DNA of 64,000 bases from an uncultured Verrucomicrobiae bacterium (GTDB lineage: Bacteria; Verrucomicrobiota; Verrucomicrobiia; Limisphaerales; UBA11358), in contig CAWDKS010000001.1 in assembly GCA_963802965.1 (NCBI GenBank), positions 202,864 through 266,863 of the forward strand, read 5' to 3'. The notes beneath the pieces are model-generated. The model saw nothing but the letters and a program-made list of their open reading frames with translations, searched no databases and was not told the DNA's origin. Of this stretch, positions 1,854 to 26,729 are shown one piece after another (position 1 is the first letter of the stretch; each line of letters begins with the position of its first letter). The translations under genes were made by a program, and so were the position numbers.

Positions 1854-1985
1854 GGTAGGGACAGCGCGCTGCGCTGTCCCCGCCCGCGTCGGGCGGGCGG
1901 AACGCATGGTGCGAGGGCGGACGCGCGCCCCGGACCGGTTCCGCGCCTGAACGGCGCGGTGACGGCGCAGCGCGCCGTCCCTACC
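1854..1985. repeat. Palindromic element, GGTAGGGAC...GTCCCTACC family (intergenic copy)
   Basis: The left end is GGTAGGGACAGCGCGCTGCGCTGTCCC and the right end is GACGGCGCAGCGCGCCGTCCCTACC (inverted). Each end is itself a 10-bp hairpin. The same termini recur inside mnmA (26183-26282). Confidence 0.8.
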
Positions 1986-22906: not shown

Positions 22907-25279
22907 TCAGGGATTGAAAATCGAGCGATAGAATCGTTGGCTGAATTGGCCCGCGTTGGTGTCCACGAACGTGAAGGGCGCGGTGTTCGTCTGGATCGAA
23001 ACCCAGTTCACGAGATCGGTGGAAGCCTGCACCATATATTTATACCCGGAGGCGCCTGAAACCACAAAGGCATACTGGCGGTTGGTGTAGGCGGTCGAAC
23101 CCAGGGTCGCGGAAGCCGCCGGAGGCACCGTCAAATTGACCGTATTGCTGTTGATTGGCGAAACGTTCCCGCTGATGTCCATCGCATAAGCCTGGACTGT
23201 GTTCGTCCCGGGCTTCAGCAGCACAAGGGCCGCCCAGTTCGTCCACCCGTTGGCCGTCGTCGCCGCCATCCAGCCCGAACCGTTCAACGAATAATACACC
23301 GTCCCTACAGCCACATTGTCACAGGCCTTGCCCGTCACCGTAAACACCGTGTTGCTCACGCGCAAATTCGTCGCAGGTGTCACAAGGCTCATCGTCGGCC
23401 GGGTCACATCCACAAACTTCGCCGTCAACGCCAGGTTGGTCGCCATCGTGAATTGCAGGGTGGCGCGATTGGTCAGCAGATTGCCCGCTCCATCGGTCCA
23501 GTTGGTGAAGGCAAACCCCGACGCCGCATTGGCGGTCATCGTGTAGTTCTCGTTGATGGCCAGCAATGCCCCGTTGTAATTGGGATTGACCGTGCCCCAA
23601 TTGGTGTTGACCGCGCTGAGTCCAACGATCCGCACCGTCAGGGGCAGGCGCACCACGTATTCAAATTTGACGGTGTTGGTGGGCGAGAGATTCCCGCTGG
23701 TGTCCACGGCGTAGGCCTGGAGCGTGTTGGTGCCCGGTGTCAGCGTCAGGCTGGCCGTCCAATTGGTCCAGTTGTTGATGGTGTTGGCGTTGGTCCAAAG
23801 GCCGCCGTTCAACGAATAATACACCGCTCCCACCGCCACGTTGTCGCCGGCCTTGCCCGTCACCGTGAACGTTCCGTTGGTCCATTGCTGGTTCCACGCC
23901 GGGGTCACGATGCTCAATGTCGGCCGGGTCACATCCACAAACTTCGCCGTCAACGCCAGGTTGGTCGCCATTGTGAATTGCAAGGTGGCGCGATTGGTCA
24001 GCAGATTGCCCGCTCCATCGGTCCAGTTGGTGAAGGCAAACCCCGACGCCGCATTGGCGGTCATTGTGTAGTTTTCGTTGATCGCCAGCAATGCCCCGTT
24101 GTAATTGGGATTGACCGTGCCCCAATTGGTGTTGACCGCGCTGAGTCCAACGATCCGCACTGTCAAGGGCATGCGCACCACGTATTCAAATTTGACGGTG
24201 TTGGTGGGGGAGATATTGCCGCTGGTGTCCACGGCGTAGGCTTGGACGGTGTTGGTGCCCGGTGTCAGCGTCACACTGGCTATCCAGTTGGTCCAGTTGT
24301 TGGTTGTCGTTACCGCCATCCAGCTTGAACCGTTCAACGAATAATAAACCGCCCCCACCGCCACGTTGTCGCCGGCCTTGCCCGTCACCGTGAACGTTCC
24401 GTTGGTCCATTGCTGGTTCCACACCGGGGGCACGATGCTCACCGTCGGCTTCTGCACATCCACAAACTTCACCGTCAGCGCCAGGTTCGTCGCCATCGTG
24501 AACTGCAGGGTGGCGCGATTGGTCAGCAGATTGCCCGCTCCATCGGTCCAGTTGGTGAAGGCAAACCCCGACGCCGCACTTGCGGTCATCGTGTAGTTCT
24601 CGTTGATCGCCAGCAATGCCCCGTTGTAATTGGGATTGACCGTGCCCCAATTGGTGTTGACCGCGCTGAGTCCAACGATCCGCACTGTCAAGGGCAGGCG
24701 CACCACGTATTCAAATTTGACGGTGTTGGTGGGCGAGATGTTCCCGCTGGTGTCCACGGCGTAGGCTTGGACGGTGTTGGTGCCCGGTGTCAGCGTCACA
24801 CTGGCTATCCAGTTGGTCCAGTTGTTGATGGTGTTGGCGTTGGTCCAAAGGCCGCCGTTCAACAAATAATAAACCGTCCCCACCGCCACGTTGTCGCCGG
24901 CCTTGCCCGTCACCGTGAACGTTCCGTTGGTCCATTGCTGGTTCCATGTTGGGGTCACGATGCTTACCGTCGGGGGCAGGGGCATGGTGAAGGAAATTTC
25001 ATGGGAAAGCGGACTTTCCAGACCAAAAACGTCAAGCGTTGCGGCCGCAAAGCAGTAAGTGGCTCCTGCAACCAGATTGGAAATGGTCACACTCGTGGTG
25101 TTGCCGGCGAGAACCTTGTTGGTGGAAACGCCTCCCTTAATCCAGAAATAGATGTCGTAGCCCGCGACAACCGGATTCATGTTTGCGTCCCACCCCAATG
25201 TCACATTTCCGGCAAAAGCCGGCAGTTCCATTATCGCAACCAGAATGCCGAAGCGTAAAAAATGTCGGATACTGCGCAT
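22907..25279 (-). CDS. Secreted repeat protein: FN3-like domain, 3.5 modules of (Ig-like + InlB-B-repeat-like) and a conserved C-terminal domain
   Basis: A signal peptide, then an FN3-like segment GNVTLGWDANMNPVVAGYDIYF. A 175-aa module is repeated (VSIVxPxWNQQWTNGTFTVTGKAGDNVAVG...FTNWTDGAGNLLTNRATLQFTM...KFVDV). The C-terminus is YKYMVQASTDLVNWVSIQTN...FYRSI. Confidence 0.85.
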   Translation of the reverse strand: MRSIRHFLRFGILVAIMELPAFAGNVTLGWDANMNPVVAGYDIYFWIKGGVSTNKVLAGNTTSVTISNLVAGATYCFAAATLDVFGLESPLSHEISFTMPLPPTVSIVTPTWNQQWTNGTFTVTGKAGDNVAVGTVYYLLNGGLWTNANTINNWTNWIASVTLTPGTNTVQAYAVDTSGNISPTNTVKFEYVVRLPLTVRIVGLSAVNTNWGTVNPNYNGALLAINENYTMTASAASGFAFTNWTDGAGNLLTNRATLQFTMATNLALTVKFVDVQKPTVSIVPPVWNQQWTNGTFTVTGKAGDNVAVGAVYYSLNGSSWMAVTTTNNWTNWIASVTLTPGTNTVQAYAVDTSGNISPTNTVKFEYVVRMPLTVRIVGLSAVNTNWGTVNPNYNGALLAINENYTMTANAASGFAFTNWTDGAGNLLTNRATLQFTMATNLALTAKFVDVTRPTLSIVTPAWNQQWTNGTFTVTGKAGDNVAVGAVYYSLNGGLWTNANTINNWTNWTASLTLTPGTNTLQAYAVDTSGNLSPTNTVKFEYVVRLPLTVRIVGLSAVNTNWGTVNPNYNGALLAINENYTMTANAASGFAFTNWTDGAGNLLTNRATLQFTMATNLALTAKFVDVTRPTMSLVTPATNLRVSNTVFTVTGKACDNVAVGTVYYSLNGSGWMAATTANGWTNWAALVLLKPGTNTVQAYAMDISGNVSPINSNTVNLTVPPAASATLGSTAYTNRQYAFVVSGASGYKYMVQASTDLVNWVSIQTNTAPFTFVDTNAGQFSQRFYRSIFNP
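23120..24979. repeat. Tandem 525-bp coding repeats (3 full copies plus 1 partial), roughly 95% identical at DNA level
   Basis: The track ORFs at 23316, 23841 and 24366 (and their antisense partners) recur with an exact 525-bp period. Hand comparison of 23453-23760 against 23978-24285 shows only scattered substitutions. Confidence 0.9.
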
Positions 25280-25520: not shown

Positions 25521-26729
25521 TTATGCAATCCAGCCGCCGCCGAGGACCAAATCGTCCTGATAAAACACCGCCGCCTGGCCGGGAGTGATGGCGCGTTGCG
25601 GCGCGTGCAGTTTCACACGGACGGAATTGTTTTCCAGCGGCGTCACCGTCGCAGGTGTGCCGGGATGGTTGTAGCGAATTTTGGTCGTTACTTCGATTGG
25701 CCCGGTCAGGTTGTTGAACGGAATCCAGTTGCAACTGCTCGCGGTGAATTCATCGCGGTCGAGCGCGGATTCGTCGCCGACGACGACCCGATTATTTTCC
25801 GCGTCCAGTTCGACGACGTAAACCGGCTTCGGCGTCGTGATGCCGAGGCCTTTGCGCTGGCCGATGGTGTAAAACTCGATGCCCTCATGATGACCAAGCA
25901 TGTGCCCGTGCAAATCCACAATTTCGCCGCGATGCTTTTGCACGAGGTTGGCCTGCTGGAGAAAGCCGCCGTAATTGTTGTCCGGCACAAAGCAGATTTC
26001 CATGCTCTCCTCCTTGTCAGCGGTCTTGAGCTGGCAATGCCGCGCGACTGCGCGCGTGTCGCTCTTGGTCTTTTCGCCGAGCGGAAACAGCGCGCGCGCG
26101 AGCTGGTCCTGCCGCAGCGAAAACAAAAAGTAGCTCTGGTCCTTCTTCAAATCGCGTCCGCGCTTGAGCAAGTAACGCCCCGTGGTAGGGACGGCGCGCT
26201 GCGCCGTCCGCGCCGCGTTCAGCGGCGCAATAGTTTCGCCCGCTACTTCGCGGGCGAGGACATCGCAGCGCGATGTCCCTACCACAGTAGGATTCGGGGC
26301 GCGCTCAACCCGCGCGAAATGGCCGGTGGCGATGAATTCCGCGCCGAGCTGGTTGGCACGGTCAATGAGCCGGCCGAACTTCAGGTTCTGATTGCACATC
26401 ACGCACGGATTTGGCGTGCGGCCGGCTTTGTATTCGTCGGCGAAGTATTGGATGACGTGCTTTTGGAATTCCGCCGCCTCGTCAATGAGGTAATACGGGA
26501 TGTCGAGCTTGTGGCAGACGGCGCGGGCGTCGGTGACGGCCTGCGGGCCGCAGCATTTGTCCTCGGCGCGGTTGACGCAATCCTGCGGCCAGAGCTTGAG
26601 CGTGATGCCGATGACCTCGTAGCCCTGCTCCAGCAACAGCGCTGCCGTGGCGGAGGAGTCCACTCCTCCGCTCATGCCAACGACCACGCGGATGCGCTTT
26701 TCTAAATTCAACAGGACGCAAATATACAA
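25521..26729 (-). CDS. mnmA: tRNA 2-thiouridine(34) synthase MnmA, carrying an in-frame repeat-derived insert
   Basis: The PP-loop VVVGMSGGVDSS, CCGPQAV, IATGHFARV, KDQSYFLFSL and ICFVPD are present. About 35 extra residues lie between GHFARV and LLKRGRD. Confidence 0.9.
   Translation of the reverse strand: MYICVLLNLEKRIRVVVGMSGGVDSSATAALLLEQGYEVIGITLKLWPQDCVNRAEDKCCGPQAVTDARAVCHKLDIPYYLIDEAAEFQKHVIQYFADEYKAGRTPNPCVMCNQNLKFGRLIDRANQLGAEFIATGHFARVERAPNPTVVGTSRCDVLAREVAGETIAPLNAARTAQRAVPTTGRYLLKRGRDLKKDQSYFLFSLRQDQLARALFPLGEKTKSDTRAVARHCQLKTADKEESMEICFVPDNNYGGFLQQANLVQKHRGEIVDLHGHMLGHHEGIEFYTIGQRKGLGITTPKPVYVVELDAENNRVVVGDESALDRDEFTASSCNWIPFNNLTGPIEVTTKIRYNHPGTPATVTPLENNSVRVKLHAPQRAITPGQAAVFYQDDLVLGGGWIA
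26183..26282. repeat. GGTAGGGAC...GTCCCTACC palindromic element inside the mnmA reading frame
   Basis: GGTAGGGACGGCGCGCTGCGCCGTCC...GGACATCGCAGCGCGATGTCCCTACC has the same termini as the intergenic copy at 1854-1985. It is translated as PNPTVVGTSRCDVLAREVAGETIAPLNAARTAQRAVPTT. Confidence 0.8.

Follow-up and report, generated by a model that had tools for sequence, protein, structure and literature searches.

In a 64,000-nucleotide stretch of the genome of an uncultured Verrucomicrobiae bacterium (contig CAWDKS010000001.1; hereafter the window), we found that mnmA, the gene for tRNA 2-thiouridine(34) synthase, carries in its reading frame a 100-bp palindromic element made of two inverted repetitive extragenic palindromes (REPs), that is, a REP doublet forming a hairpin (REPIN). 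Its family is dispersed through the source genome and its genus and is accompanied by a gene for a REP-associated tyrosine transposase (RAYT), and the protein loop in which the element lies holds at least 12 other palindromic families across about 100 species. We conclude, with a probability of about 85%, that the element is a non-autonomous mobile element of a RAYT-served REPIN family, residing in frame in a tolerant loop of MnmA that has been occupied recurrently.

A REPIN of a RAYT-associated family

The nonamer GGTAGGGAC occurs four times in the window, at 1854 (+), 1985 (-), 26184 (+) and 26283 (-), against 0.09 expected by chance, and none of 100 shuffled windows reached four. These occurrences form two convergent pairs, of which the second marks the bounds of the mnmA element. 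The initial annotation of this DNA had noticed a palindromic element inside mnmA and placed it at 26183-26282; the palindrome stands, while the positions of GGTAGGGAC move it one base to the right, to 26184-26283. The same annotation had matched its termini to those of an intergenic element bounded by the first pair, and this match is exact, both copies belonging to one family (Table 1). The intergenic copy is crossed only by short spurious frames.

The mnmA element is composed of two outer REP units and two inner hairpins. Both REP units form perfect 9-bp hairpins; the first is among the commonest variants of the family, and the second is its commonest exact variant in the source genome and in relatives. 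Every long copy keeps the inner hairpin adjoining the first unit; one subfamily has it in the compensated form CCGCGCC..GGCGCGG, and in one relative (L016) the orthologous copy has C>T matched by a compensatory G>A. The arms of the other inner hairpin are 100% complementary. Folding the element as RNA, as had been suggested with the initial annotation, yields a single long hairpin (-85.7 kcal/mol, z = -8.3), and the fold as DNA is similarly exceptional (-48.2 kcal/mol, z = -9.2). The element aligns with 17 other long family copies, all built in the order REP, hairpin, variable spacer, hairpin, REP; of the members with full architecture it is the shortest, and it has no central spacer.

The dispersed family that an insertion would call for is present in the source genome (G000), a metagenome-assembled genome (MAG) of 3.3 Mb in 12 contigs. 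The 26-nt unit GGTAGGGAC-NN-CGCGCTGCG-NN-GTCC has 55 copies at two or fewer mismatches and 71 at four or fewer, located on nine of the 12 contigs, and a reversed control pattern has none; we put the size of the family at about 63-71 units. Its form, G-GTAG-GGAC with a 9-bp stem and a GCT loop, agrees with the 20-40-nt imperfect palindromes with a 5' GTAG that define this type of REP. Likewise typical of GTAG-type REPs and REPINs, the many dispersed copies include inverted doublets capable of forming a long hairpin: 27 convergent pairs were found, either abutted as 52-bp doublets or 100-172 bp long with a spacer. Among 32 distinct units, 96.5% of stem cells are paired and 34 cells are changed on both sides, a level that none of 500 shuffles matched; five of the nine pairs are changed on both sides (for example, GG/CC, AT/AT, AG/CT and GC/GC). 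The structure under selection is therefore the individual REP hairpin.

About 55 kb upstream of the mnmA element, outside the window, lies a single-copy RAYT gene whose product scores 90.1 bits (cut-off 80) with NF047646 REP_Tyr_transpos, the NCBIfam equivalog "REP-associated tyrosine transposase", carries the HUH (HVHAL) and Y..NPV motifs and is encoded between family copies, two on each side. Family and gene together are a classical REPIN-RAYT system, or REPtron. The family is found in 22 of 25 genomes of the genus, the source genome included, with up to 108 units in each, and is nearly absent outside it. The genus belongs to soil Verrucomicrobiota (subdivision 3, Limisphaerales/Pedosphaerales), with relatives known from soil and peat metagenomes. 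Given the presence/absence polymorphism described below and the range of 0 to 108 copies within the genus, the RAYT presumably moves the GGTAGGGAC family. The REPIN copies that flank the RAYT gene (G000 C1:173200-174800) are about 220 bp long and have, nested in each of them, an element from a second GTAG family (GTAGCAGAGCTACTGCGGAGGACGGGC...), so that one REP family is nested in another beside the transposase gene.

Table 1. Coordinates of the mnmA element, its parts and other members of its family (window positions, or contig positions in genome G000)
Feature	Position	Strand	Description
mnmA, tRNA 2-thiouridine(34) synthase	25521..26729	-	Frame from TTG; true start codon uncertain
REPIN-type element	26184..26283	.	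100 bp; two inverted GTAG-REP units and two inner hairpins
REP unit 1	26184..26209	+	GGTAGGGAC GGCGC GCT GCGCC GTCC; GTAG head, 9-bp stem (arms 26189-26197 / 26201-26209), 3-nt loop
Inner hairpin	26210..26228	.	GCGCCGC-GTTCA-GCGGCGC
Inner hairpin	26236..26257	.	TCGCCCGC-TACTTC-GCGGGCGA; arms 26236-26243 / 26250-26257; conserved in family alignment
REP unit 2	26258..26283	-	Minus-strand reading GGTAGGGACATCGCGCTGCGATGTCC; arms 26258-26266 / 26270-26278
Extra junction codons A144-V149	26284..26300	-	GCC CCG AAT CCT ACT GT.; missing from insert-free alleles in codon alignments
Intergenic family copy	1854..1985	.	132 bp; subfamily with longer central spacer and extended outer arms
RAYT gene	G000 C1:173762-174235		157 aa
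In-frame copy, radical-SAM/CofH-like enzyme	G000 C8:13480-13531		
In-frame copy, RibD	G000 C8:24193-24244		Interdomain linker
In-frame copy, GT9 heptosyltransferase	G000 C1:102133-102158		Family-9 glycosyltransferase
In-frame copy, Vsr	G000 C8:73396-73503		
In-frame copy, SIS-domain protein	G000 C3:1092157-1092208		

Insertion and turnover in one loop of MnmA

The host gene is, as first read, a single open frame of 402 codons through the element. Its product contains the Pfam domains PF03054 (tRNA_Me_trans, PP-loop HUP), PF20259 (M domain, PRC-barrel) and PF20258 (C domain, beta-barrel), matches Escherichia coli MnmA in PDB 2DER (E = 1.7e-78) as well as 2HMA and 9HLN, and keeps all conserved motifs, with the PP-loop SGGVDS domain and the MnmA fold that mark the family. 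The element lies between ...IATGHFARVE and RYLLKRGRDLKKDQSYFL and reads in frame on the minus strand from the third base of V149 to T182, as VGTSRCDVLAREVAGETIAPLNAARTAQRAVPT. In line with the extra residues noticed originally between conserved blocks, the distance from GHFA to LLKRG is 47 residues here; relatives without the insert have 9-13 and E. coli has about 10. The HMMER alignment to solved structures splits into two blocks that skip residues 141-180. Neither the MnmA structures solved for other phyla nor most members of its own order have the insert.

An AlphaFold2 model obtained with more diverse alignment rows (predicted local distance difference test score [pLDDT] 80.3, predicted TM score 0.79) has an otherwise intact MnmA fold, with Foldseek TM scores of 0.84-0.85 to 2HMA and 2DET, that to the E. 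coli MnmA-tRNA complex being 0.85; a first run on 56 very close homologues gave a pLDDT of 56.8 and was unusable. In the model, the pLDDT falls below 50 at residues 148-176, which stick out from the turn joining strands 138-143 and 186-190, so the insert is most likely a disordered excursion at the hairpin tip. Together with a few junction codons, the element lengthens a beta-hairpin of the N-terminal catalytic domain by 36 residues at its tip, and most likely it is translated as a disordered surface loop that the enzyme tolerates.

Comparison with relatives bore out the suspected insertion polymorphism. A short turn (for example, RIEKSADGSRY) replaces the 47 residues in 22 of 30 relatives' mnmA loci. 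Of 76 species representatives taken from a public collection of genomes, 49 have 9-13 residues at the loop and thus no insert, and overall about 70% of related species have this short form. All the genomes are metagenome-assembled, and insert-bearing alleles may be under-sampled in these counts, as short-read assemblies tend to break at repeats. Two relatives rich in family units, G015 with 108 and G006 with 66, have an empty mnmA nonetheless; in a third, G009 with 67 units, no mnmA match was found. The empty loci, including those in the family-bearing G015 and G006, indicate that the insertion is a real presence/absence polymorphism.

These comparisons also bear on whether the insert is an artefact, either a repeat mis-assembled into a MAG or a sign of mnmA decaying into a pseudogene. 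The source genome is a MAG, repeats are a well-known cause of faulty assembly and one relative (G010) has a frameshift in a T-run of mnmA, but the same 100-bp copy is found at the same codon in five independently assembled genomes from different studies. Moreover, the frame is intact with all conserved motifs, and in the flanking halves of mnmA only 10% of first and second codon positions vary versus 48% of third positions, revealing strong purifying selection. An artefact is so improbable on these grounds that we give it practically no weight.

While five species hold the same 100-bp form, the other insert-bearers hold other palindromes in the same loop, with at least 12 families counted in about 100 species. 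They include a 52-bp GGTAGGGCTGACC doublet, hairpins of the GTAGCAGCCGACGTGAGG, GTAGGACAGGC, GGGAGCGCCGGC... and CCCCTCACCC... types, an AT-rich palindrome and several others. Nearly all are long hairpins, with z from -4 to -10 relative to shuffles, and GTAG..CTAC ends are common among them. Across an alignment of 229 MnmA sequences, inserts of six or more residues are confined to this site, with one exception, a second insert elsewhere. On a maximum-likelihood tree of 109 MnmA sequences, built with the loop columns removed, 20 changes of loop state are needed, at least 14 of them forced by well-supported branches, and different families are present in sister species (L051/L061 and L047/L048). 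A single ancestral insertion was therefore rejected, on account of these forced changes and sister taxa with different families, with the proviso that deep nodes near the source genome are weak.

Loss and nesting also left traces in the loop. An "empty" allele (L055, loop RVEQVPSAGRY), sister of an element-bearing one, keeps GTCCCTA (GTC CCT A) from the end of the REP, apparently a scar left when the element was deleted imprecisely, and the loops AAGTPSVPG (L072) and AEGAGG (L087) may be similar scars. At the other extreme, a metagenomic MnmA (P0098, L185:1001-2392) has in the loop a stop-free compound of 113 residues (339 nt), in which at least four types of element are combined: one element of the CCCCTCACC type that is split and a full second copy of it, the end of a GTAG REP, a twice-repeated AGCCTTCGCTCAGAAGCTACGGC unit and a tandem run of four CATCGAA heptamers. 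In the source genome itself, the junction codons contain ..CCTAC, which resembles the end of a GTAG element and is possibly a remnant of an older resident.

Two further candidates at this locus had simpler explanations. The split match in G010 (L038, G010:C68) was taken for a frameshifting insert and is an in-frame insert of another family (VGVQASACSDGNLTREPQE) plus a separate indel in the T-run; this frameshift, about 100 nt downstream of the insert, is probably an assembly error. A long match in L115, taken for a large insertion, is an empty allele with a duplicated 3' fragment downstream. This fragment (L115:4200-4800) encodes the last ~20 residues of MnmA (PGQAAVFYQDDLVVGGEWIVR) and follows the insert-free mnmA and a glutathione-peroxidase-like gene.

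Constraint on the copy and choice of site

The mnmA copy is more conserved than the gene around it. Between species, pairwise identity is 92-96% in the element, 86-89% in mnmA outside it and 66-70% at third codon positions; among four species, variable columns make up 12%, 22.7% and 47.6%, respectively (Fisher p = 2e-11 for the element versus third positions), and one element hairpin has a compensatory double change between species. Sequence and length differ in the junction codons that border the element, these being common to the source genome and L046 (CCGAATCCTAC TGT) and variable in L016 and L045, and thus the conserved element is not a recombination tract. Since a disordered peptide would not constrain all three codon positions, the constraint would act on DNA (or RNA) hairpins or reflect homogenisation against genomic copies, and both REPs of the mnmA copy have the same sequence as the variants that dominate the genomic family. 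The pattern of substitutions thus points to constraint at the nucleotide level, not on the peptide.

Such conservation, exceeding that of the surrounding gene and far exceeding that of third codon positions, could have arisen if the element had been retained for a function of its own, either as an mRNA hairpin (-86 kcal/mol) that slows ribosomes or influences mRNA decay, or as a surface peptide of MnmA, and its very stable fold and its persistence in at least five species would fit such exaptation. However, most relatives have no insert and others have unrelated sequences at the site, which means that no particular peptide or hairpin is needed there. The conserved parts are the REP units, i.e., the master sequences of the genomic family, as expected from family-level constraint or gene conversion; the insert is modelled with a pLDDT below 50, and the same pattern recurs in unrelated genes. 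Exaptation is therefore improbable in our judgment.

The unrelated genes are those of the other in-frame copies. At least six of about 44 family loci are in frame inside Pfam-verified proteins, namely mnmA and five others (Table 1). An extragenic location, part of the usual definition of REPs and REPINs, is thus not what we see, and documented intragenic exceptions (PMC3733652) leave room for membership. At the RibD and radical-SAM sites, relatives either lack an insert or have several different families of palindromes in that place. The idea that the elements are "coding-competent", i.e., depleted of stops, was rejected: of 27 copies, 17-20 are open in the two frames that avoid the TAG of GTAG, compared to about 15-16 in shuffles, which is not a meaningful enrichment. 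As the elements are not specially stop-free, in-frame, stop-free insertions would be selected by survivorship.

Survivorship might even be all that is required, if palindromes insert everywhere at a high rate and the MnmA loop is the only place in the protein where about 10-110 extra residues do no harm. The site is a beta-hairpin tip of low model confidence, the RibD site (an interdomain linker) and the radical-SAM site are loops as well, and no target motif was found. Nor does the empty site offer a special structure: a hairpin as target was considered and rejected, because 49 empty alleles with 30-nt flanks fold like shuffles (mean z = -0.25). On the other hand, other low-confidence loops of the model (residues 52-58 and 240-250) are insert-free in all 229 sequences, repeated hits on occupied sites are suggested by nested compounds and by sister species that differ in their elements, and REPs are known targets of other mobile elements (PMC3733652). 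We hold survivorship as the sole cause to be possible rather than probable.

The reading that we prefer, a mobile REPIN in a tolerant and repeatedly occupied loop, would proceed as follows. A REPIN copy would have landed in the DNA encoding the beta-hairpin tip of the N-terminal catalytic domain of MnmA, and the gene would have stayed open as the inserted DNA and its junction amounted to a multiple of three and were stop-free in the frame used. The copy is old, being common to at least five species. Two factors together would explain why at least 12 unrelated palindromic families have occupied the loop again and again and why losses, scars and nested compounds are seen there: the MnmA loop would be exceptionally permissive, and a resident hairpin would be a preferred target, or "landing pad", for further hairpin elements. 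Extending this tentatively, loops of MnmA, RibD, the radical-SAM enzyme and other housekeeping proteins may be reusable landing pads, in which the single-stranded DNA of a resident hairpin is the preferred substrate for further insertion or replacement of the RAYT type and unrelated REP families succeed one another at the same codon. What keeps the resident copy in check would then be selection on the REPIN population, or conversion from that population, at the level of DNA and not of protein.

Several points weigh against this reading. The flanks of 27 family copies have neither a target-site duplication nor a target motif, only a preference for T/A at position -1 that extends the palindrome. 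The ancestral loop codons (KSADGS) are missing, not merely interrupted, in insert-bearing alleles, which simple cut-and-paste would not predict. The tree is poorly resolved near the source genome, so that gains, losses and replacements do not separate cleanly, and recombination between species could inflate the number of events. High conservation of the DNA could equally mean that the hairpin has acquired a function. Finally, we infer both the RAYT-driven insertion of the GGTAGGGAC family and the translation of the insert in an active enzyme.

Other inserts were observed in the same genome. RibD and the SIS-domain protein also contain inserts of other repeat families (LSPPGGER.., SRREEAPSE.., HAEAVLGAPG). 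Outside the window, thrS (~848 aa, G000 C2:11040-13586 (-)) and priA (~981 aa, G000 C12:54630-57575 (+)) each hold a complete in-frame Y1/HUH transposase-like domain (CVMPDHVHLL...; Pfam Y1_Tnp), bounded by repeat-derived peptides and located between normal ThrRS or PriA domains. Directly downstream of mnmA in the window, an open reading frame at 22907-25279 (-) encodes 790 aa with near-identical ~190-aa repeats (…TVSIVTPxWNQQWTNGTFTVTGKAGDNVAVG…NTVKFEYVV…), probably a secreted repeat protein.

Relation to known systems and significance

A palindrome in frame in a protein gene is a kind of event already known, from intragenic GTAG REPs and from Rickettsia palindromic elements (RPEs). The closest precedent is the survey of Di Nocera et al. 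2013 (BMC Genomics 14:522, PMC3733652), which described GTAG REPs and REP dimers inside genes, with Opitutus terrae, a verrucomicrobium, having the most. Shared with our element are the GTAG head and 9-bp stem, the inverted dimers, the cognate RAYT of a REPtron and in-frame copies that encode 20-40 residues in housekeeping genes of the same phylum. Neither mnmA, trmU nor thiouridylase is found in the supplement or table of that survey. The mnmA element differs in being a REPIN of four hairpins, a form of 100-136 bp, and not a bare dimer. Moreover, different REPs at about the same site were reported there in one case, Xanthomonas recB, whereas here a single loop was used by at least 12 families in about 100 species, with scars and nested compounds, and the copy is more conserved than its host gene. 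It is the scale of this reuse and this excess conservation that go beyond the literature consulted.

The REPIN-RAYT systems described by Bertels & Rainey 2011 (PMC3116915; RAREFAN preprint 10.1101/2022.05.22.493013) have in common with the present family the hairpin-forming REP doublets, one repeat-flanked RAYT, vertical persistence in a genus with 0 to 108 copies per genome here, and a few dominant "master" sequences. REPINs there are extragenic, unlike the in-frame loci of this genome.

RPEs ("Selfish DNA in protein-coding genes", Ogata et al. 2000, as related in PMC10969869 and PMC3733652) are also in-frame palindromes in conserved genes that give fold-compatible surface peptides. They belong to a different phylum, and those whose head is given in the latter account, RPE-4 and RPE-6, are CGTC-type REPs, not GTAG (PMC3733652). 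In addition, Rickettsia is obligately intracellular, in contrast to the free-living soil organism studied here. Judged by head type only (GTAG versus CGTC), membership of our element in the RPE sequence family is unlikely, and the resemblance is one of behaviour. To our knowledge, no cognate transposase has been assigned to RPEs. [quoted passage not shown] However, the 27 copies lack the target-site duplication expected of MITEs, their partner is a Y1/HUH RAYT and not a DDE transposase, and their ends are GTAG hairpins instead of the terminal inverted repeats of a parental insertion sequence.

To the initial annotation, the present analysis adds the identity of the element as a GTAG-REP doublet with a cognate RAYT, the many other families in the same loop and the conservation at the DNA level. 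REPs and REPINs are defined as extragenic, and in-frame copies are a little-known exception, recorded mainly in Rickettsia and in one 2013 survey. The mnmA locus is an unusually clean natural experiment on this exception, as it combines a site defined to the codon, a universally conserved enzyme, about 100 sequenced species and a RAYT in the same genome, with loops that stand empty, hold a member of any of at least 12 families, bear a scar or contain several nested elements. It bears on whether hairpins target hairpins, on the tolerance of a catalytic domain for foreign peptide and on DNA-level selection on intragenic REPINs. In practice, such inserts inflate protein lengths and give rise to spurious "lineage-specific insertions" in the annotation of Verrucomicrobiota. 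If occupied loops do act as landing pads, protein loops would be a regular, heritable habitat of REPINs with turnover dynamics of its own.

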